From NCBI GenBank assembly GCA_965204685.1, contig OZ242004.1:1226615-1290614 (forward strand): 64,000 nucleotides of DNA, written 5' to 3'. The DNA is from Dehalococcoidia bacterium (GTDB lineage Bacteria > Chloroflexota > Dehalococcoidia > Lucifugimonadales > UBA3495). Positions 2,147 to 59,101 of this stretch are shown here, in pieces; positions within the stretch are counted from its first letter, which is position 1, and each line of letters starts with the position of its first letter. A model generated the notes under the pieces. That model saw nothing but the letters and a program-made list of their open reading frames with translations. It ran no database searches and had not been told where the DNA came from. A program made the translations under genes and the position numbers.

Positions 2147-3049
2147 TCAATACTTCCGCAGGGTCGGCGCAGCCACGCCAAGCAACTCCTGCCGCGCAAT
2201 CGACCAGACCCGGGTCAGGGCCTGCTGAACCGCGGCGCAGTCCCGGCCGATCATCTTGACCCCTACGCCGTTGCCGTCGGGCAGCATGGAAGCGCCGGCC
2301 CGAACCTCGAGGCCCGGTTTCAGGTTAGTCCTGACCCGGTCCAGTATCGCGCGGGCGGGCGGGCTTTCACACACGATCAGCAGGGAACCCAGGGTGCGTG
2401 CGGATGCGTCGTCGGCATCCTGCGGGCTCCCGAAGCCCAATATGCCAACCCCCGTGAGGTTGCCCGCTCCCGGGTCCAGGTCGAAGGCTTCCCGGTAGGT
2501 GGGCCGGCCGCTCTGACCTCGAACCGTAACCTGGTTTGAGATCTTCCTGAACCGGAACGACTCCCCCATGGCCACCCTGCCGGGTGTTATCACGTCGCTG
2601 AACAGCAGCGCGCCGCCCGGATCGCAGGCGATGTCAACTTCCTGCTCCAGACTGGCGCCCCGGTAGGGTATCAACGGGTCCGGCAGGTATTCCAGGTACC
2701 CGCCCGGCTCGACGTTGAGGTGCACTCGCTGCTCGGCGACGCCTCCGGTCATCGTGTAGACTTTCGTGGCGCTCTGGGTGGTCACGTGGGCCCTGGCGCC
2801 GTCGCCGATGCTCACCGCGACGCGGTGCCGGTCGTTCTGGAGCAGCCCCCCGGTGGGGTTTGCCAGGAACACGTAGGCTAGGTCGGGCGCGGCCTCGTCC
2901 GGATACAGCGCCTGCTGGACCAGCAGAGGCGGCCGGGTGTGGCAGTGCGTCAGCCGGGTCCGGCCCGCTCTCCGCTCCAGAGCCAGCTCGACGGAACCGT
3001 TTTGGCCGGCCGGCCCGGCTTCAACAGACGGTTCCCGGGCCAACAGCAT
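2147..3049 (-). CDS. ureD: urease accessory protein UreD/UreH
   Basis: UreD-like sequence ([14 protein letters not shown]..., [11 protein letters not shown]) at the end of the ure cluster. Start placed at ATG 3049; the track ORF extends to 3109. Start uncertain. Confidence 0.85.
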
Positions 3050-3644
3050 CGAGGATCCTGTCCAGCACCGCGTCCAGTCCTTCACCCGTGCGGCAGTTGG
3101 TGAACGCATACGGACGCTCTCCCCGAACGATGTTGAGGTCCCGGCGCATCACGTTCAGGTCCGCGCCCACGTAGGGAGCCAGGTCGGTCTTGTTTACCAC
3201 CAGCAGGTCGGTTTGGGTGATGCCCTGTCCGCGCTTGCGGGGTATCTTGTCTCCGGCCGCCACGTCGATCACGTAGATCTGGAAATCGGCCAGCGCCGGG
3301 CTGAAGGTCAGCGTCAGGTTATCGCCGCCGCTTTCGATCAGGACGATATCCGAGTCGGGATATTTCTCGGTCAACTCCTCCACCGCCAGCAGGTTGAGGC
3401 TGGGGTCCTCACGCACCGCCGCGTGGGGGCAGGCTCCCGTGGCGACGCCGCGGATGCGGCCGGTGTCTAGAACTCCCTCCAGGGTCCGCGTGACGTGATC
3501 CGCGTCCTCCCTGGTGAAGATGTCGTTGGTAATGACCACCGGGCGCCGCCCTCGCGCCAGCAGCATAGGCACCAGTTGTTCGACCAGTGTGGTCTTGCCG
3601 GAGCCCACCGGCCCGCCGACGCCAATTCGGGGAACCTTTCTCAT
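3021..3644 (-). CDS. ureG: urease accessory GTPase UreG
   Basis: P-loop [19 protein letters not shown] and NKTDL motifs. Start is ATG 3644 (MRKVPRIGV). The 128-aa N-terminal extension in track ORF 3021..4028 is low-complexity and overlaps the Uma2 gene. Confidence 0.95.
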
Positions 3645-3702
3645 GGTTTCTCTCCACTTTTTGCGGGGTAACCCGGCACGTCCCGGCGCGTTTGCCCGGG
3701 TA

Positions 3703-4440
3703 TCAGCTGTCCCGCAATCGTTGCAGTTCCTCCTCAAGCTCTTGAACCCTGGCTTCGGCTTGGAGGCGTGCTGCACGCTCGGCAAGGCGGCCTTCGCGCT
3801 CGGCAAGGCGCCCCTCCCGCTCGGTGTCAAAGGTGGCGATGTGGTCGCCGGTGTTGGGATCATGCCAGCGCAGGGAACCGTCGGTCCAGAGGAGTTCCAG
3901 GCCGAGGACGGCGCTGTGTCCGCTGAGGTTGCCGTCCGGCAGCTCAATGATCTCGATGGGTTCGTATCTTCCGTCCACCAGCCGGTCGCCGGCCAGGCGG
4001 GAGCCGTGGTACTGTCCGGTTTCGTCAAAACGCCAGTATTCGGCGATACCGAGAGCCGCGTAGGCAGCGCGCTTTTCGCCGGTGTCGGCGCGGCCGGTGG
4101 AGCGGGAAGCGATTTCCAGCACGAAGTCGGGCGGTTTACCCTGTTCGGATATCACGTACCCGTTGTGTTCCTCAAAAGCGATCGGATCGACGTTGAAGGC
4201 TACCAGGAGGTCGGGGTAGAGGACGCCGGTCATGTCGGCTCTTTCTGATGTGGGCACGAGGGTGATGTATCGTTCGGTGGTTACGATGGTAGTCTGTGGG
4301 TTGCCGAGGTGGAGGGCCAGGTGGTGGGCGTGCCCGGTGTCGGTCAACTGTTTGGCGGCGGTCATCTTCTCGTCCGGAGATTTGGGAGGGTCCGGGAGCC
4401 GGAAGGTGGGAGGAGATTTCGGCGATTTGGCGGTGGTCAT
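3703..4440 (-). CDS. Uma2 (DUF820) family putative endonuclease with C-terminal coiled coil
   Basis: Core [36 protein letters not shown] matches the Uma2/restriction-endonuclease-like fold pattern. C-terminus is [23 protein letters not shown]..., encoded by a tandem ~21-nt DNA repeat. Confidence 0.8.
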
Positions 4441-4527
4441 GCTGAAACTCTCCGTGGCGGGTCGGCAAAGCAGTGGGCTATGAAGTGGATTATACCTGCG
4501 CCGGGTTTGACCGTTGCGGCCGCGCCG

Positions 4528-5241
4528 TCAGCTGGCGAACATCCGCACTTCGTCGTGTTCGTGCAGCATGGACGCGATGTCAGTCTGGGGCGCGAAGGAT
4601 GTCATCTCGCGCCAGTCGCGGTGCTGCAAGGCCGTCGTCGCGCCGATCACGGGTTCGTGCAGCGACCGCAGGATATGCTGCGCCTCCGAGTGGGTGACGG
4701 GGAGCAGCCGTTGCGCCGCGCCCAGGACGCCCACGGCAAAGCTGTGACAGAGCATCAGCAGTGTGCTATCCGGGTCGATGCCCGTCGCGCAGGACGCCAC
4801 GCCCAGGGCGACGGCCCCCGTGCCCGGCGTCTCCCGTTCCATTATCGCCCGCCGGAACTTGCTGTGAACGGCGCATCCGGTCGCTCCCGCGAGCAACGGC
4901 GCCGTTTCGTCCAGGATGCGCCGCCCGGCGTGGCAGGAGGCCGCCCGCAGTTCCTCGGGCAGTTTCATCGCGTGCAGGTGCCGGTCGGTGTCAACCAGCG
5001 TTGCCAGGTCGCCGTCCTGCGCAGCGCGGTGGGCATTCAGCAGCGCCACGCCGTCGCACGGCAGGATCGACCAGGTCAGCAGGTTGCGCAAGTACTCCTC
5101 CAGGTCGTCCGCATTGTTGACCCAGCCTCGCGTCACCATTCCTTCCAGACCCTGAGAGTGAGCGTAGGTACCGGACGGGAAGAACGAGTCGGCAAGCTGC
5201 AGTGCGGCGAGGAAGCTGGCGCTGCTGTCCCGGCACGTCAT
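4528..5241 (-). CDS. ureF: urease accessory protein UreF
   Basis: N-terminus LAALQLADSFFPSGTYAHSQGLE is typical of UreF. Lies immediately downstream of ureC. Confidence 0.9.
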   Translation of the reverse strand: MTCRDSSASFLAALQLADSFFPSGTYAHSQGLEGMVTRGWVNNADDLEEYLRNLLTWSILPCDGVALLNAHRAAQDGDLATLVDTDRHLHAMKLPEELRAASCHAGRRILDETAPLLAGATGCAVHSKFRRAIMERETPGTGAVALGVASCATGIDPDSTLLMLCHSFAVGVLGAAQRLLPVTHSEAQHILRSLHEPVIGATTALQHRDWREMTSFAPQTDIASMLHEHDEVRMFAS

Positions 5242-5253
5242 GGTTCACGTCCG

Positions 5254-6972
5254 CTACACCAGAAAGTGCAACTGCGCCAAGCTCAGGCGTTCCGCCGCCG
5301 GCACGGTGGCGATCTCGCCGTCCACGCGCACCGTGTAGGTGTCCGGGTCGACCTCGATCACCGGCATTCCGTCGTTGTGCACCATCTGCCGCTTGGTGAT
5401 GGCGCGGCAATTGCGCACCGGCTCCACTCGCCGGGTCAGCCCCAGGTCGCGGTGAACTCCCGCGTCGTAGGCCGCCTGGGACACGAAGGTCAGCGCCGTA
5501 TTCGCCAACGCCTTGCCCATGTTGCCGAACATGGGGCGATAGAAGGACGGTTCGGCGGTGGGTATGGACCCGTTGGGGTCGCCCATGACCGCCCAGCAGA
5601 TCATCCCGCCTTTGATGATCATCTTGGGCTTCGCGCCGAAGCTTCCCAGCGGCCAAAGCACGATGTCGGCCAGCTTGCCAGGCTCCAGCGACCCCACCAG
5701 GTGCGATATGCCGTGGGTAATGGCCGGGTTGATGGTCAGCTTGGCCAGGTAGCGCAGGACGCGGAAGTTGTCGTGGTCCGGCGAGTCCTCGGGCAGCTTG
5801 CCCTTGAACTGCCGCATCTTGTCGGCAGTCTGGAACAGGCGGGTAAAGTTCTCGCCCACCCGCCCCATCGCCTGCGAGTCCGAGGCGTACATGCTGATGA
5901 CGCCCAGGTCGTGGAGCACATCCTCCGCGGCCATGGTCTCCGGCCGGATGCGGCTCTCGGCAAAGGCCACGTCCTCGGGCACCCGCGGGCTGAGGTGGTG
6001 GCACACCATCAGCATGTCCATGTGCTCGGTGAGCGTGTTGACGGTGTACGGCCGCGTCGGGTTGGTGGATGAGGGCAGCACGTTCGGTTCCGACGCGATG
6101 CGGATGATGTCCGGCGCGTGGCCGCCGCCGGCGCCCTCGGTGTGGTAGGTGTGGATCGCCCGCCCGCCGATGGCGGCGATGGTGTCCTCCACGAACCCCG
6201 CCTCGTTCAGCGTGTCCGTGTGGATCGCCACCGGGATGTCGAACCGGTCGGCCACGGCCAGGCAGCAGTCGATGGCCGCCGGCGTGGTGCCCCAGTCCTC
6301 GTGGAGCTTGAGGCCGCTGGCCCCGGCCGCGATCTGCTCCTCCAGGGGAGCCGGGTCGCTGGCGTTGCCTTTGCCCAGCAGGCCCCAGTTGACCGGCAGC
6401 GGCTCGGCGGCCTCCAGCATCCGCGCGATGTTCCACGGGCCCGGCGTGCAGGTGGTGGCGTTGGTGCCGTCGGCCGGCCCGGTGCCCCCGCCGATCATGG
6501 TGGTGATGCCGTTGGACAGCGCGTGGTACACCTGCTGCGGCGCGATCATGTGGATGTGCGCGTCGACCCCGCCGGGAGTGGCGATCAGGTGCTCGCCGGC
6601 GATAACCTCGGTGCCCGGCCCCACCACCAGGTCGGGATGCACGCCGTCCATGACGTTGGGATTGCCGGACTTGCCCACCGCTACGATGTGCCCGTGGCGC
6701 ACGCCGATATCGGCCTTGATGACTCCCATCATCGGGTCCATGATGATGGTGTTGGTGATGACCAAATCCAGCGCGCCGTTGCGGTTGGTCGTCTCCGACG
6801 CCTGACCCATGCCGTCCCGGGCTGACTTGCCCCCGCCGAAGACCAGTTCGTCGCCGTGGGTGAGCAGGTCGCGCTCGATCTGGCAGACCAGGGACGTGTC
6901 GGCCAGGCGGAACCGGTCTCCCACGGTGGGGCCGTAGAGGTCCACGTATTGCCGGCGGCTGATTCGGGCCAT
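5254..6972 (-). CDS. ureC: urease alpha subunit
   Basis: 572 aa. [26 protein letters not shown]..., HEDWG and MVCHHL motifs. Confidence 0.97.
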
Positions 6973-6976
6973 GTCG

Positions 6977-7381
6977 TTATGCCTCGCTGGTATCTACTGG
7001 GTTCGACGGCTGGTTCAGGAAACCCCGCCTGGAGATTGCTTCGAGGGCCTGGGCGCGCACGACCGGCGAGTCCAGGCTGCCGTCGGTAAGCCCGTTGAGC
7101 CCGCGCACCCGGCGCGAGCCGCCGATGGCCACCAGCGTCACGTCCTTGCGGTCGCCCGGCTCGAAACGCACGGCAGTCCCGGACGGCACGTCCAGCCGCA
7201 TCCCGAAGGCGGCCTCCCGGTCGAACCGCAATGCCCGGTTCACCTCGAAGAAGTGGAAGTGCGAGCCGACCTGTATGGCCCGGTCGCCCGTGTTCCACAC
7301 CGACAGCGTACACGTGGGCCGGCCCGCGTTTATCTCAACCGGTTCGTCAGCGATGATGTAGTGTTCGCTGGGATTGCTCAT
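6977..7381 (-). CDS. ureB: urease beta subunit
   Basis: 134 aa. [19 protein letters not shown] and [17 protein letters not shown] motifs. No obvious Shine-Dalgarno upstream. Confidence 0.95.
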
Positions 7382-28055: not shown

Positions 28056-28253
28056 GGCGACACCTCGCTGTCATGACTAAGATGAAAGAACCTGCCCGGT
28101 CCTCGGATGTTTGTAACACCAGTCCGGGTTGGCGGGCAAGACACGCTGGGCGCGCGAATAACGCTCGCCCAGCGATATGTCCCGGCCAGGTCGACACGGG
28201 AACCGGGTAGAGCGCATAATGCGCCCACATGCCAATCATTTGAGGAGTTGAAC

Positions 28254-28808
28254 ATGTCGGCGAAAGTTACGGGCCTCGGTCATATCGGCTTCTACGTTCA
28301 TGACCTCGAACTCATGATGGACTTCTACGAGAATTTCATGGGAATGCAGCGGACCAAGGTCGGCCCGCTGGGCGCCTTTTTCAGCGCGGATCCGGAAAGC
28401 TGCGATCACGAAATCGCCCTGATCAACGGACGGCCTTCGCTGGATGATCCGCATTGGATTCAGCAGATTTCGATGCGTGTGGAATCCCTGGATGATTTGC
28501 GCGATTTCAAGCGGCGCATCCACGAACGCGGATACCCGTTGGACCGCATCGTCAGCCACGCCAGCGCCATCGGTTGCTACTTCCGAGACCCGGAGAACAA
28601 CCCCACCGAGGTGTTCTGGCTGACCGGGTACACCTCGTGGGCGCAGGTGGGCATCCCCATCGACATTGACCAGTCCGACGACGCGGTCATGGCGGATGTG
28701 CTGCGGTCCTACGAGGCGGTCAAGAACGTGCCGATGGGCACGCCCGCCGGCCCGGAAACGGTGGACGCCATTCGCGGCCTGACCGAAGCCGCGGTCGTCA
28801 GCCGGTAG
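28254..28808 (+). CDS. VOC family protein (glyoxalase/extradiol dioxygenase-like)
   Basis: MSAKVTGLGHIGFYVHDLELMMDFYENFMGM... ATG 28254 is preceded by a GAGGAG RBS. The track ORF's 49-aa extension is unlikely. Confidence 0.8.
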   Translation: MSAKVTGLGHIGFYVHDLELMMDFYENFMGMQRTKVGPLGAFFSADPESCDHEIALINGRPSLDDPHWIQQISMRVESLDDLRDFKRRIHERGYPLDRIVSHASAIGCYFRDPENNPTEVFWLTGYTSWAQVGIPIDIDQSDDAVMADVLRSYEAVKNVPMGTPAGPETVDAIRGLTEAAVVSR

Positions 28809-28848
28809 GGATAGCACAGCCGGCGGGTAGAGCCCGGGGGAGGCCACC

Positions 28849-29604
28849 ATGCTGAAAGCAGAACGTGACAACGCCATAACCCGGCTCGGTGACCAGGACC
28901 GGGGAATGTTCCGGCGCGTCGTCGACGCAATGAAGGATGCCAGGGCGTACAGCCCCAACGGCCCAACCGACGCAGGACAAGTGACCGCCCGTCAGGTCAT
29001 GGAAAACTGGGCTGAGCCACTGTCCGGGGACGTCAAGTTGGCCGTGGAAGCGGTCGTGGCGCGGGACGAGATGGGCCCGCACGTGGGAAAGGTTGCCCCG
29101 GCCTTCGACCTCAAACGGTTGGGTTCTGACGAGCGGGTCCGCCTGTCCGATTTTCACGGCCGACGACCGGTGGCCCTGGCTTTCGGCAGCTACACTTGAC
29201 CGCCCTTCCGCGCTCAGTCGGAGCGCATGACCCAGATCTACCACCGCTACAAGGACTCGGTGGAGTTCTTTGTCGTCTACGTCCAGGAGGCCCACCCTAC
29301 CGACGGGTGGCAGACGGACAGCAACGTGGCGGAAGGGATACTGTTCCGCCAGCACCAGAGCTATCAGGAACGGGAATCGGTTGCCCAATCGTGCAGCATC
29401 GACCTGCACATCGGCCTACCCATCATCATCGAGGAAATGGACAACGCCATCGACGAAGCATGCGGCGCGGCGCCGGAACGCCTGTACCTGGTGGACGTCG
29501 ACGGCAACGTGGCCTACCACGGAGGCGCCGGCCCCCATTTCTTCGACCTGGACGAATGGGAGCAGGCCATCGAATCCTGTGTCGCAGCAGTAGTGACGCG
29601 ATAG
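28849..29604 (+). CDS. iodothyronine-deiodinase-like thioredoxin-fold selenoprotein (in-frame TGA = Sec at 29197-29199)
   Basis: Track ORFs 28849..29199 and 29227..29604 share one frame, separated only by a TGA. Read-through gives ...PVALAFGSYT-U-PPFRAQSERMTQIYHRYKDSVEFFVVYVQEAHPTDGW.... This places U at the deiodinase FGSxT-U-PPF active-site position. A SECIS-like hairpin follows. Confidence 0.7.
29210..29226 (+). promoter_or_regulatory. bacterial SECIS-like hairpin
   Basis: GCGCUC-AGUCG-GAGCGC: a perfect 6-bp stem beginning 10 nt after the TGA, with G at position 2 of the apical loop followed by U. Confidence 0.5.
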
Positions 29605-29609
29605 ATTGC

Positions 29610-29637
29610 GGGGCAACGTTCCTTGCGCCGTTGCCCC
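29610..29637. terminator. GC-rich hairpin between convergent genes (terminator candidate without U-tract)
   Basis: GGGGCAACG / CGTTGCCCC: a perfect 9-bp stem with a 10-nt loop, between the selenoprotein gene stop (29604) and the ggt stop (29662). Confidence 0.35.
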
Positions 29638-29661: not shown

Positions 29662-31422
29662 TCAGAAGCCCACGGCGTAGGCCTCGCACCTGGGATCAGC
29701 GCCACCTTGCAGCACTCCAGTCTCGGGGTTGCGCGTAATGACGCAATACAGGGCCGAGCCTTCCCACCATTCCGGGTATTGCTCTATCGTGTGGCCCTTT
29801 TGGCGCAGGCCGTCGACCACTTCGTCGGAGATGCGGCCCTCCAGGCGCAACATTCCCGGATCGTACCGCGACGCCCAGTTGGAGCTGGGGAAGTTGTAGC
29901 TGTAGAAGCGTGGTTCCTCCACGGCCTCCTGGGGATCCCGGCCAAACTCCAGCACGTTGAGCAGCAGTTGCAGCGTGCCCTGCGGGATGTGGTCGCCGCC
30001 ATGGGCGCCCAATGCCATGACCGACTCTCCATCCCGCAGCACCAACGCCGGCGCCGGGGTGAGCCGGGGACGCTTGCCGCCGACCACCGACGCCGGATGG
30101 TCTTCGTTCAGCTTGGACTGGGTGCCGCGCAGGGAGAAAGCGAGGCCGGTTCCGGGGATGATCGGCCCGCCGTTCTTGGTGCCCTCGCTGGGTGTGCAGG
30201 AAAAGATGTTGCCATCCCGATCGATTACGGCAAAGTACGATGTCCCGCCGCCGCTGACGCCGGCAGTGCCAACCGGTGTCGCGGCATCCCGGGGTGACTG
30301 TGGAGCGCCGTCGACGGTCGCTTTCCCTTTTCGCGGGTCTCCCGCCGGCGGCGTACCCGGCCATGCCAGGTCCGGGTCGATCAGCGTGCGGCGCTTGGTC
30401 AGGTATTCTTCGGCGAACATTTCCTTGAGCGGAACGTCCACGAAGTCGGGATCACCCACGTACCGCTCCCGGTCGGCGAAGGCCAGGTTCAACGCCTGGC
30501 TCACCGTGTGAATGTACTGGGTGGAGTTGTGGCCCATGGACGCCAGGTCGAACCCCTCCAGTATCTTGAGTGCCTGGGGGAAGGTCGGCCCCTGGCCCCA
30601 CGGCCCGGTGCTGTAGACGTCATAGCCCTTGTAGTTGACCGTCACCGGCGGCCCCACCTGGACGTGATAGGCGGCCAGGTCTTCTTCGGTGAGCAGGCCG
30701 CCCATCTCCTGGTTGAAGGCGACAATCTTGTGGGCCAACTCGCCGGTGTAGATATAGTCCCGGGCCGCCTTCATTGCCGCTTCCCGTCCCTTGCTCGCGT
30801 TGGACGCCTCGATGTCGGCGAGCTTGGACAGACTGGCGGCCAGGTCCTTCTGGTAGAACATCTCGCCCTGCTTGGGGGCGCGGCCGCCGGGCAGGTAGAT
30901 CTCGGCGGTCGACGGGTAGGCGTTGTACTGGTCGTAGGCCGTCTTGAACCGGCCGGCCAAGTAGCGGAACATGGGGAAACCGTTGCCGGCCAGGTCTATG
31001 GCCGCGCTGGCCACCTGTCCGAAGGTCATCGTGCCAAACTTCGAGAGTGACGTAATCCACGAATCGGCGGCGGCCGGCGTCAGGGACGACAACACGCCGG
31101 GCGGCATCCTGCCCCCGTGGTGCTTGTGGAAGTAATCAACGGACGCTGCCCTGGGCCAGACCCCGAGACCGTCAACGGTGACGACTTCCTTCCGGTCGGC
31201 CAGGTAGATGACGGTGGGCGCAACGCCCAGGAAGCTGCAATCGTCGACATGCACCACGTTCAGCGCCAGGCCAACGGCCACGCCGGCGTCGATGGCATTG
31301 CCGCCCCGTTTCAGCACTTCCAGGCCGGCCATGGCCGCGCTGGGGTGGCTGGCGGCAACCATTCCGTTGACCCCCTGCATCAGTGGGCGGTAACTGGTCA
31401 TCGTGGTCCCTTTGACTGGCAT
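29662..31422 (-). CDS. ggt: gamma-glutamyltransferase
   Basis: GGT family (...GGGTSYFAVIDRDGNIFSCTPS..., with the autoprocessing Thr region). Start ATG 31422 is preceded by GGAGG at 7-nt spacing. The longer track start 31512 overlaps the upstream gene. Confidence 0.9.
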   Translation of the reverse strand: MPVKGTTMTSYRPLMQGVNGMVAASHPSAAMAGLEVLKRGGNAIDAGVAVGLALNVVHVDDCSFLGVAPTVIYLADRKEVVTVDGLGVWPRAASVDYFHKHHGGRMPPGVLSSLTPAAADSWITSLSKFGTMTFGQVASAAIDLAGNGFPMFRYLAGRFKTAYDQYNAYPSTAEIYLPGGRAPKQGEMFYQKDLAASLSKLADIEASNASKGREAAMKAARDYIYTGELAHKIVAFNQEMGGLLTEEDLAAYHVQVGPPVTVNYKGYDVYSTGPWGQGPTFPQALKILEGFDLASMGHNSTQYIHTVSQALNLAFADRERYVGDPDFVDVPLKEMFAEEYLTKRRTLIDPDLAWPGTPPAGDPRKGKATVDGAPQSPRDAATPVGTAGVSGGGTSYFAVIDRDGNIFSCTPSEGTKNGGPIIPGTGLAFSLRGTQSKLNEDHPASVVGGKRPRLTPAPALVLRDGESVMALGAHGGDHIPQGTLQLLLNVLEFGRDPQEAVEEPRFYSYNFPSSNWASRYDPGMLRLEGRISDEVVDGLRQKGHTIEQYPEWWEGSALYCVITRNPETGVLQGGADPRCEAYAVGF

Positions 31423-31474
31423 GGTTGGGCCTCCGTGTTTGGGGTATTTGTTTCTCGGTTGGGGCAGGTAGATT

Positions 31475-32266
31475 TTAGACGGCTTCTTCTCTGGCGGCTT
31501 TGGCTCGCTCAATCAGGAACTGGGCGTCGGTGACGGTCTTTTCCAAGTAGTCCGGCTGGTCGGTCAGACGCGGTTGCCGTCGTGATCGGTAGCCGCGTCG
31601 CCCAGCATACTCCGCGTAGATGTCGGGGGCTATGGACAAGCGGAAGTTCTGCATTTCGGGGTGGAAGTGGCGAAGCGTGCCCAGCAGGTCCGCCATGCTG
31701 TGGTTGTAGCCATAGGGAATCTTTCGGGCTTCCAACAGGGCTTTCAATCCGCACTCCAGCGCAAAGTGGGCCTGCTGCCCGATTGGAAAATCCGGCTGGT
31801 CGTTGCTTGCCAGCGACTGGAAGGCGGACAGGTGCGCTTCTGCCCTTTCGATGAGTATTTCGTAGTTCTCCCAGTCGTAGGAGGATTCGGTATCCTCGTC
31901 TTCGTATTCTGACGAGCCGTACTGGTTCGGATCCCGGGGCATGATTATTCCGTCCTTTACGGCTTGGGTCTCGACGCTGTTGACGTAGCGGCGGTTGTAC
32001 CGGAACTCATCGATGGTTCTCCACACCAGTTCCACCGGCACTTCCCGTCCGTAGGTCTCCCAGGCGACCCGGGCGGCGGCGGCGGCGGCGGCCTTTTGGA
32101 TGGCGTCGTCAGGTTCGGTGGCCTGCACCAGCATGACGTCGATATCCGACAGCAGTTCCTCGTGGTCACCCCGAGCGCGGGAGCCGAAGAGGATGACGAG
32201 TTCGGGCTGCTCGCGTTGCTGCACTGCTTTCGCTATATGCAGCGCTTTGGGGTCGTGACGTTGCAT
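31475..32266 (-). CDS. fused minimal nucleotidyltransferase (MNT) - HEPN domain protein
   Basis: N-terminus LFGSRARGD..LSDIDV (pol-beta NTase motif). C-terminus ...ALECGLKALLEARKIPYGYNHSMADLL... (HEPN-like). Contains a (CGG)6 tract encoding AAAAAAA. Confidence 0.75.
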   Translation of the reverse strand: MQRHDPKALHIAKAVQQREQPELVILFGSRARGDHEELLSDIDVMLVQATEPDDAIQKAAAAAAARVAWETYGREVPVELVWRTIDEFRYNRRYVNSVETQAVKDGIIMPRDPNQYGSSEYEDEDTESSYDWENYEILIERAEAHLSAFQSLASNDQPDFPIGQQAHFALECGLKALLEARKIPYGYNHSMADLLGTLRHFHPEMQNFRLSIAPDIYAEYAGRRGYRSRRQPRLTDQPDYLEKTVTDAQFLIERAKAAREEAV

Positions 32267-58617: not shown

Positions 58618-59101
58618 CGAAAACCTCGCCACCGTCCGCCGCATCCGTGAGGAGTTGACCGGCCTGCTGGACGGCATGGATTACTGCCTGGACTGGAAGG
58701 ACGGCGCCGGATCCGATGCTGATCCATGGTGCGCCCGGGAGGTCCTGTACCACCTGGTTGATACTCCGGAGGGCGGCATTGGCAGCGTCATCGCCGGCGT
58801 GCTGAGCGGCAGCCTTGAAGAGGTCACCATCCTGCCTGACATCAGCAACATCACGCCGGAGCGCCTGGCCTCCGACATTGGCGATGCCCTGGCCGGCCCC
58901 CTGGCCATCCTGCAAACCGCCGAGGACGCCATTGCCAACGCAGACGATGGCGACTTTGAGGGACGAACCGCCCTGGCCCACCTGCCACACCGCGGCATCC
59001 ACGAGCAACGCACGGCGCAATCGTTCATCGACGGCCTGGAACGACACTGGGGCGAGCACCTGAACCAAATCCGCGCCATCCGCGAAGCGCTTGGGATGTG
59101 A
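58604..59101 (+). CDS. DinB-like (four-helix-bundle, DinB_2-type) protein
   Basis: 165 aa. GGAGGGAG RBS. W..REVLYHLVDTPEG near the N-terminus and ...HWGEHLNQIRAIREAL at the C-terminus, typical of DinB-fold His residues. Confidence 0.65.
   Translation: MATRDENLATVRRIREELTGLLDGMDYCLDWKDGAGSDADPWCAREVLYHLVDTPEGGIGSVIAGVLSGSLEEVTILPDISNITPERLASDIGDALAGPLAILQTAEDAIANADDGDFEGRTALAHLPHRGIHEQRTAQSFIDGLERHWGEHLNQIRAIREALGM

Follow-up and report, generated by a model that had tools for sequence, protein, structure and literature searches.

The window analysed here is a stretch of 64,000 nucleotides from contig OZ242004.1 of a Dehalococcoidia bacterium (GCA_965204685.1). It contains, on the plus strand, two open reading frames (ORFs), 28849..29199 and 29227..29604, that share one frame and have the TGA at 29197-29199 as their sole internal stop. 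A sequence-only reading of this region had proposed that the two are the halves of a single selenoprotein gene, and translation confirms that nothing but this TGA separates them; read through, the peptide around it is ...RRPVALAFGSYT-U-PPFRAQSERM.... We consider it very probable that 28849-29604 is one gene, encoding a 251-residue thioredoxin-fold enzyme of the deiodinase family with a catalytic selenocysteine (Sec) at the in-frame UGA. The features of this gene and of the other loci discussed below are listed in Table 1.

Table 1. Features of the deiodinase-like gene and of other genes in the 64,000-nt window (coordinates are window positions).
Feature	Coordinates	Strand	Basis
Predicted deiodinase-like selenoprotein, complete coding sequence, 251 residues, Sec = residue 117, stop codon TAG 29602-29604	28849..29604	+	Translation, Pfam PF00837
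Shine-Dalgarno-like GGGGGAGG, 5 nt 5' of start codon ATG 28849	28836..28843	+	Read from sequence
N-terminal extension, ~71 residues, outside the catalytic domain, charged, without hydrophobic anchor	28849..29061	+	Pfam/PDB matches start at residues 72-78
Thioredoxin-fold deiodinase-type catalytic domain, residues 72-242	29062..29574	+	Pfam T4_deiodinase, PDB matches
Predicted Sec codon UGA, residue 117, motif FGSYT-U-PPF	29197..29199	+	TGA in 72 related genes
10-nt spacer CCGCCCTTCC from UGA to hairpin, codes Pro-Pro-Phe	29200..29209	+	Alignment A1 columns 10-19
Putative bacterial SECIS-type hairpin, 6-bp stem GCGCUC/GAGCGC, loop AGUCG	29210..29226	+	Sequence, covariation, bSECIS constraints
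VOC/glyoxalase-superfamily gene, same-strand neighbour upstream	28107..28808	+	Pfam PF00903, E=2.5e-10
Urease operon: ureB 6977-7381, ureC 5254-6972, ureF 4528-5241, ureG-like 3021-4028	3021-7381	-	

The Shine-Dalgarno-like sequence that the sequence-only reading had placed ahead of the first ATG is present, as is the perfect hairpin that it had described 10 nt past the TGA. Its statement that the second half has no ribosome-binding site of its own held in part. A GGAG does lie 3 nt upstream of ATG 29227, but the same GGAG forms part of the 3' arm of the hairpin, and the ATG itself is not conserved, being replaced by an Ile codon (ATC, ATT or ATA) in 12 of 71 orthologs. The spacer between the UGA and the hairpin shows no length variation at all in the 71 aligned sequences. 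The first half is conserved as well: homologs P0043, P0053 and P0001 share the N-terminus MLKAERD with the window protein, and the median identity over the whole N-half is 52% among the Chloroflexota orthologs.

Orthologs were sought in one genome per GTDB species, and the scan returned 75 loci, nearly all from metagenome-assembled genomes of Dehalococcoidia, SAR202 and other Chloroflexota, together with two from Entotheonella and one from Opitutia. Four loci without a motif match (L070, L072, L074 and L075) were left out of the codon count, which includes the window gene and further loci fetched after the 75-locus scan. At codon 117, the related genes counted in this way (n = 75) have TGA in 72 cases, TGT in two (L076 and L077) and TGC in one, and never TAA or TAG; among the motif-matched scan loci, all carry TGA except the Opitutia locus L071 (TGC). 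The expectation that a random nonsense mutation would hardly strike the redox residue so precisely is borne out: the recurrence of TGA at this exact codon, in genes with 52-90% identity to that of the window, is far beyond chance. At their true 3' ends, these genes stop with TAG (41), TAA (22) or TGA (11). An alignment with homologs, which had been suggested as a check, places the TGA opposite Cys in L071 and in the full-length proteins P0001, P0013 and P0015, which read FGSYTCPPF and of which P0001 is the closest Cys form.

The interruption is also visible in the protein database, where homologs are split: the N-half entries P0041, P0043 and P0053 end exactly at FGSYT, C-half entries of ~138 residues begin just past this motif, and both halves of the window gene are themselves stored publicly as separate entries. 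A protein from the Joint Genome Institute (JGI), P0017, has Trp at the Sec position, yet the DNA of this ortholog (L078:946-948) reads TGA, as the contig was translated with a code in which TGA means Trp.

Pairwise comparisons with the window gene (45 codons before and 120 codons after the TGA) gave ratios of non-synonymous to synonymous substitution rates (dN/dS) of ~0.1-0.17 on both sides, indicating that both halves are under purifying selection. Of the 60 ORFs in the window, 22 end in TGA as an ordinary stop, and the 64 kb contain no further in-frame TGA that looks coding, so the genetic code of the organism is standard and not reassigned. Two further same-frame TGA junctions in the window, at 59099 and 4528, are ordinary gene boundaries and not selenoprotein genes. 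Taken together, the conserved TGA, the selection on both sides of it and the standard code exclude a nonsense mutation, an assembly error, a pair of separate genes and a genome-wide codon reassignment as explanations of the interrupted frame.

The hairpin downstream of the UGA had been regarded as compatible with the spacing and loop of bacterial selenocysteine insertion sequence (SECIS) elements. In the window, its arms are GCGCTC (29210-29215) and GAGCGC (29221-29226), the apical loop AGTCG begins 16 nt past the TGA, and loop positions 2-3 are G and then U; in most orthologs, the stem has 7 bp and encloses a G[U/G]N triloop. A published bacterial SECIS (bSECIS) model describes a loop of 3-9 nt, a stem of 4-16 bp, a UGA-to-loop distance of 16-37 nt and a minimum free energy of at most -7.5 kcal/mol, with the loop pattern N1-G-[G/U]-N-N2 and a G in the first two loop positions (PMC13188914). 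The hairpin lies within all four constraints, with a stem of 6-7 bp, a loop of 3-5 nt, a spacing of 16 nt, which is the lower limit, and an energy of -9.4 kcal/mol alone and -10.9 kcal/mol within 48 nt. The earlier assessment is therefore upheld by agreement with the published model, to which compensatory changes and synonymous-site constraint are added here.

As the region folds no more stably than shuffled sequences (see below), we relied on comparative evidence. In an ungapped alignment of 71 TGA-form sequences (A1), in which the stem occupies columns 20-26 and 30-36, 89.3% of the stem cells are paired; shifting the 3' partner by 1-3 columns lowers this share to 15-56%. Compensatory changes occur at four of the seven stem pairs, and the observed covariation score was reached by none of 500 shuffles. 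These changes include C-G to U-A at columns 21/35 (6 sequences), U-A to C-G at columns 24/32 (9 sequences), and G-C to U-A at columns 22/34 in L003, the latter by two non-synonymous changes. In several compensations, one arm changes synonymously while the other acquires an amino-acid replacement; in one such case, CGC has become CGT in the 5' arm and Arg is replaced by His (CAC) in the 3' arm. Under a null model in which synonymous codons are resampled from the family's own usage, 3.54 of the seven pairs are expected, whereas 6.26 are formed. The codon choice within the arms is strongly skewed: for Glu codon 8, 56 genes use GAG and none GAA (family-wide ratio 53:47); at Arg codon 4, 71 of 72 genes have CGC or CGT, even though Arg is most often encoded by CGG (41%) in these genes; and Ala codon 5 is never GCG or GCA. 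A perfect 7-bp stem with two of the compensatory pairs is present even in L078, a distant TGA form (46% identity), and no such hairpin is formed in the Cys forms L071 and L076. The compensatory changes, the synonymous-codon skew and the absence from Cys forms indicate that the hairpin is under selection as RNA, beyond what the protein sequence demands. RNAalifold, applied to a 54-column alignment, recovered only four of the seven pairs (-1.66 kcal/mol), and the explicit pair count was used instead.

A further skew lies immediately 5' of the UGA, where the Thr codon (29194-29196, A1 columns 4-6) is ACT in 62 of 72 orthologs, compared with 20% of the Thr codons in these genes. It is not explained by the hairpin and suggests that the sequence 5' of the recoded UGA is itself constrained.

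The joined protein, searched with Cys substituted at the TGA, is a member of the deiodinase family. It matches Pfam T4_deiodinase (PF00837) with E=7e-33 and 114.3 bits (cutoff 27) across profile positions 68-234 of 237, and the catalytic domains of mouse Dio3 (PDB 4TR3) with E=5e-26 and Dio2 (9H48) with E=1.1e-19; the match to 4TR3 also fixes the fold. The TGA aligns with the catalytic Sec position of Dio2 and Dio3, which is occupied by Cys in the crystallised constructs. The proposed location of the stop, at the point where the deiodinase motif FGSxT-U/C-PPF carries Sec or Cys, is thus supported both by this alignment and by the Cys-form homologs. Among 74 family members, S114, T116, U117, P118, P119, F120, Y144, E147, H149, H169 and C182 are at least 95% conserved. 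Six of these residues (S114, T116, Y144, E147, H149 and H169) are, in the alignment to 4TR3, the counterparts of the proton-relay set proposed for Dio3 (Ser167, Thr169, Tyr197, Glu200, His202 and His219; PMC11592359). Thus, a profile score above the threshold coincides with the active-site motif S-x-T-U/C-P-P-F and its relay residues. Cys182, which is invariant in the family and located 65 residues downstream of U117, is a candidate resolving thiol.

Other family assignments fit less well. The NCBIfam model NF038285 ("deiodinase family protein", a hypothetical equivalog) scores 189.9 bits, below its cutoff of 250, and the match covers only profile positions 173-340 of 347, the N-terminal region of the window protein being different and shorter. 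The peroxiredoxin profile (AhpC/TSA, PF00578) represents the same superfold, in which helix 1 begins with a nucleophilic Cys or Sec, but its match is marginal (32.5 bits, cutoff 26) and overlapped by the far stronger deiodinase match (114 bits). The peroxiredoxin motif Pxxx(T/S)xxC is only partly present, with Ser114 at -3 but Leu110 instead of Pro at -7. Some homologs are fusions of a deiodinase-like domain with EF-hands (P0020 and P0046), an architecture that has already been published (PMC9402790).

Several observations weigh against a Sec-encoding gene. Searches of the 64-kb window identified neither selA, selB or selD (tblastn with E. coli SelA, SelB and SelD) nor a tRNA-Sec (ARAGORN and Rfam, which found only a tRNA-Ala), and all four are likewise missing from ~1.4 Mb of sequence flanking the related loci. 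As an isolated feature, the hairpin is weak evidence: 10.6% of the 1666 TGA trinucleotides in this window (64% GC) precede a hairpin that passes the same constraints, and the 64-nt region folds no better than its dinucleotide shuffles (z=+0.63), i.e. the stability of the hairpin is unremarkable for this G+C content. Its conservation is imperfect as well, with a C.A mismatch at stem pair 24/32 in 19 of 71 orthologs and no closing A-U pair in 22 of 71; because the 5' arm overlaps the codons of the conserved FRAQ peptide, its conservation is owed in part to the protein. In the protein itself, residue 205 (29461-29463) is Cys (TGC) in DEACGAAPERLY, compared with Tyr (DEAYGAAPERLY) in at least 95% of the 74 members, which may be a lineage-specific substitution or an error. 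Finally, a relative with ~90% nucleotide identity, represented by two separate ENA assemblies (L081:3001-3657 and L082:2942-3598), has undergone a deletion of ~650 bp at a short region of similarity; the affected stretch corresponds to window positions 28627-29279. It removes the TGA and the SECIS and fuses the upstream gene of the vicinal oxygen chelate (VOC)/glyoxalase superfamily in frame to the deiodinase-like C-half (P0004 and P0011), while the synteny with a beta-lactamase-like gene, the gamma-glutamyltranspeptidase gene and an amidase gene is kept. The loss of the Sec-encoding half in such a close relative implies that the gene is dispensable in some lineages.

Indirect support for Sec decoding comes from two orthologs, both of the TGA form, that lie on contigs of the SAR202 bins bin87 (MPNC) and bin22 (MPMM) from the sponge Aplysina aerophoba (L020 and L031). 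For these bins, Table S4 of Slaby et al. 2017 lists three and two copies of SelA, respectively, and one copy each of SelB and SelD, and the same study found SelA and SelB to co-occur in most symbiont bins. Candidates closer to the gene proved to be something else. Weak SelA matches beside it in six loci are ammonia-lyases of the DgaE family (TIGR01437), which depend on pyridoxal 5'-phosphate (PLP), and a SelD match in L026 is, judged from reading its sequence, a ThiL-like protein of the aminoimidazole ribonucleotide (AIR) synthase family. The SelA-related PLP enzyme of L012 (10937-12079, minus strand; 380 residues) lies directly downstream of the selenoprotein gene, as it does in L007, L009, L013, L022 and L066; it scores 225 bits with TIGR01437, below that model's own cutoff of 385.3, and only 47 bits with the Sec synthase model TIGR00474. 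In the window, this enzyme is absent from the position downstream of the selenoprotein gene.

The strongest competitor, which we nevertheless regard as very unlikely, is a Sec-independent read-through or local recoding, in which a near-cognate tRNA (Trp, Cys or Arg) would decode the UGA, or the codon would have been reassigned in this lineage, yielding a full-length but selenium-free protein. A UGA followed by C, as here, is a leaky termination context, the window shows no Sec machinery, and P0017 is a public example of an ortholog translated with Trp at the site. However, TGA terminates more than a third of the ORFs in the window without a second coding-like in-frame occurrence, and the codon coincides with the catalytic Sec/Cys position of the deiodinase family, whose members in animals and in marine bacteria are selenoproteins. 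Trp or Arg at residue 117 would destroy the active site, simple read-through does not require a conserved, co-varying hairpin at SECIS spacing, and SelA, SelB and SelD are reported in the two ortholog-bearing genomes mentioned above. We therefore infer that Sec, rather than another amino acid, would be inserted at this codon.

It is still harder to reconcile the data with two genuine genes, the second re-initiated at ATG 29227 to give a separate polypeptide. Gene callers do predict two proteins, which are stored as such in public databases, and the GGAG upstream of the internal ATG could be taken as a start signal. Yet none of the homologs shows the halves as independent genes: the two share one frame in every case and directly adjoin each other, the break falls within the FGSxT-U-PPF motif and the thioredoxin fold, the internal ATG gives way to Ile codons, and the Cys-form homologs are single polypeptides. 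Moreover, all 72 internal stops are TGA, a codon that only a minority of these genes use as their real stop, most of them ending in TAG or TAA. Equally improbable, in our view, is that the TGA is a nonsense mutation in a decaying gene or a sequencing or assembly error for TGC or TGT in an ordinary Cys protein. A single base change separates TGA from either Cys codon, and the deletion described above demonstrates that a close relative truly lost half of the gene. Against this stand the same TGA in 72 independently assembled genomes with 52-90% protein identity and the purifying selection on both of its sides; the agreement among independent assemblies of ~70 species excludes the assembly error that the sequence-only reading had named as a possible refutation.

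A single gene for a Sec-containing deiodinase-like enzyme thus remains the best explanation, and it belongs to a bacterial selenoprotein family that has already been catalogued, a point on which the earlier note was silent. Zhang, Fomenko and Gladyshev 2005 (PMC1088965) described bacterial "deiodinase-like protein" selenoproteins in the Sargasso Sea metagenome, together with their Cys homologs and bacterial SECIS elements, and the family is included in current prokaryotic selenoprotein catalogues (PMC9312934, PMC13188914). The window gene shares with it the PF00837 domain, the in-frame UGA at the catalytic position, the existence of Cys homologs, a small bSECIS directly downstream with a G in the apical loop, and a marine microbial origin. 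It differs in that the examples given in reviews, to go by their description, have UxxC, whereas the window protein has U-P-P-F with no Cys at +3. The window clade is further set apart by the conserved, soluble N-terminal extension of ~71 residues and by its near restriction to Dehalococcoidia, SAR202 and other Chloroflexota.

With the vertebrate deiodinases Dio1-3 (4TR3, 4TR4 and 9H48), the protein has in common the fold, the motif FGS-x-T-U-PPF, the loop Y-x-x-E-A-H-P-x-D-G-W and the downstream His. In contrast, the SECIS of Dio1-3 is located in the 3' untranslated region and not within the coding region, and their N-terminal membrane anchor has no equivalent in the window protein, whose N-terminal 71 residues contain no hydrophobic stretch. 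Thyronine-binding features are lacking too: the Arg275 clamp of Dio3 aligns with Ala227 (in GGAGP). Cys168 of Dio3 corresponds to Tyr115, and its Cys239 has no counterpart. Compared to E. coli fdhF-type and consensus bSECIS elements, the hairpin has the same position immediately 3' of the UGA inside the ORF, and its spacing, stem, loop and energy are in range. It is, however, very short, with a spacing at the lower limit and without a bulged U, and its binding by SelB is putative.

The genomic neighbourhood varies by subclade, and no universally conserved operon partner was identified. In the window, the VOC/glyoxalase gene ends 40 nt before the start of the selenoprotein gene and may be co-transcribed with it, but this adjacency is kept only in the loci of 10-11 close relatives. 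A dienelactone hydrolase gene takes the upstream place in ~14 loci. In ~15 others (the L025-L036 group, e.g. L031:8366-13289 and L033:5986-6570), the selenoprotein gene is part of a same-strand block, with genes for a cysteine-dioxygenase-type cupin, a four-domain rhodanese, a small cupin and a sulfite-oxidase-type molybdoenzyme upstream and for Ham1, a MoxR-type AAA ATPase and a CoxE-type von Willebrand factor A (VWA) protein downstream; this block may be linked to sulfur oxidation. On the other side of the window gene, 6 nt 3' of its stop codon, lies a perfect inverted repeat (29610-29637) whose 9-bp arms, GGGGCAACG / CGTTGCCCC, are 10 nt apart. The repeat precedes the gamma-glutamyltranspeptidase gene, which is convergent (29662-31512, minus strand), and, lacking a T-run, was not called by the terminator scan. 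The two Entotheonella orthologs (L041 and L063, from Entotheonellaceae and Entotheonella TSY1) are of the TGA form, 57-63% identical to the Chloroflexota proteins and equipped with the same hairpin, a pattern that would fit horizontal transfer among sponge symbionts. Elsewhere in the window, an Rfam match to the Helicobacter 5' ureB small RNA (sRNA; 62 bits, 6524-6819, plus strand) runs antisense to the 5' part of the urease alpha-subunit gene and most likely reflects the conservation of the urease coding sequence rather than an sRNA.

In the mechanism that we propose, the UGA would be decoded by Sec-tRNA(Sec) during translation, with SelB docking on the hairpin of the mRNA within the coding sequence and delivering the charged tRNA, while termination by release factor at the same codon would compete with Sec insertion and produce a 116-residue fragment. 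The finished enzyme would carry the active site S114-x-T116-U117-P-P-F, the proposed relay residues Y144, E147, H149 and H169, and Cys182 as the candidate resolving thiol. By its sequence, it would most likely be a selenol-based reductase or oxidoreductase that is recycled by thiols, and its substrate is probably not thyroid hormone. As there is no universal neighbour, we keep the functional statement this general. A more specific idea, which we regard as unlikely, is that the enzyme of this clade is a true reductive dehalogenase that depends on selenium and has natural halogenated phenolics (e.g. bromotyrosine-derived sponge metabolites) or marine organohalogens as substrates. The clade retains the complete deiodinase-type active site, many of its members come from sponge-associated genomes, including the A. 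aerophoba SAR202 bins and Entotheonella, and the aromatic-catabolism-type neighbours (VOC/extradiol-dioxygenase-like in one subclade and dienelactone hydrolase in another) fit loosely with such a role. The sulfur-oxidation neighbours of the third subclade point instead to thiol or sulfur redox chemistry, and we found no literature that links bacterial deiodinase-like proteins to SAR202, Dehalococcoidia or sponge dehalogenation. If true, the corrinoid reductive dehalogenases of Dehalococcoidia would have a cofactor-free counterpart in this enzyme.

The practical value of the finding lies in correct annotation, as gene callers routinely split members of the deiodinase-like family in two. The 72 Sec forms with their compact, co-varying 17-nt SECIS also offer a clean training example for bSECIS models, and the window clade would be well suited to experiments on what bacterial deiodinase-like proteins do biochemically. 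At present, public collections contain the gene and dozens of its orthologs either as a pair of unrelated "hypothetical" fragments or with Trp wrongly placed at the Sec position. This mis-annotation hides a selenoprotein that is conserved across SAR202 and Dehalococcoidia, and the use of selenium in this abundant marine and sponge-associated lineage is consequently underestimated.

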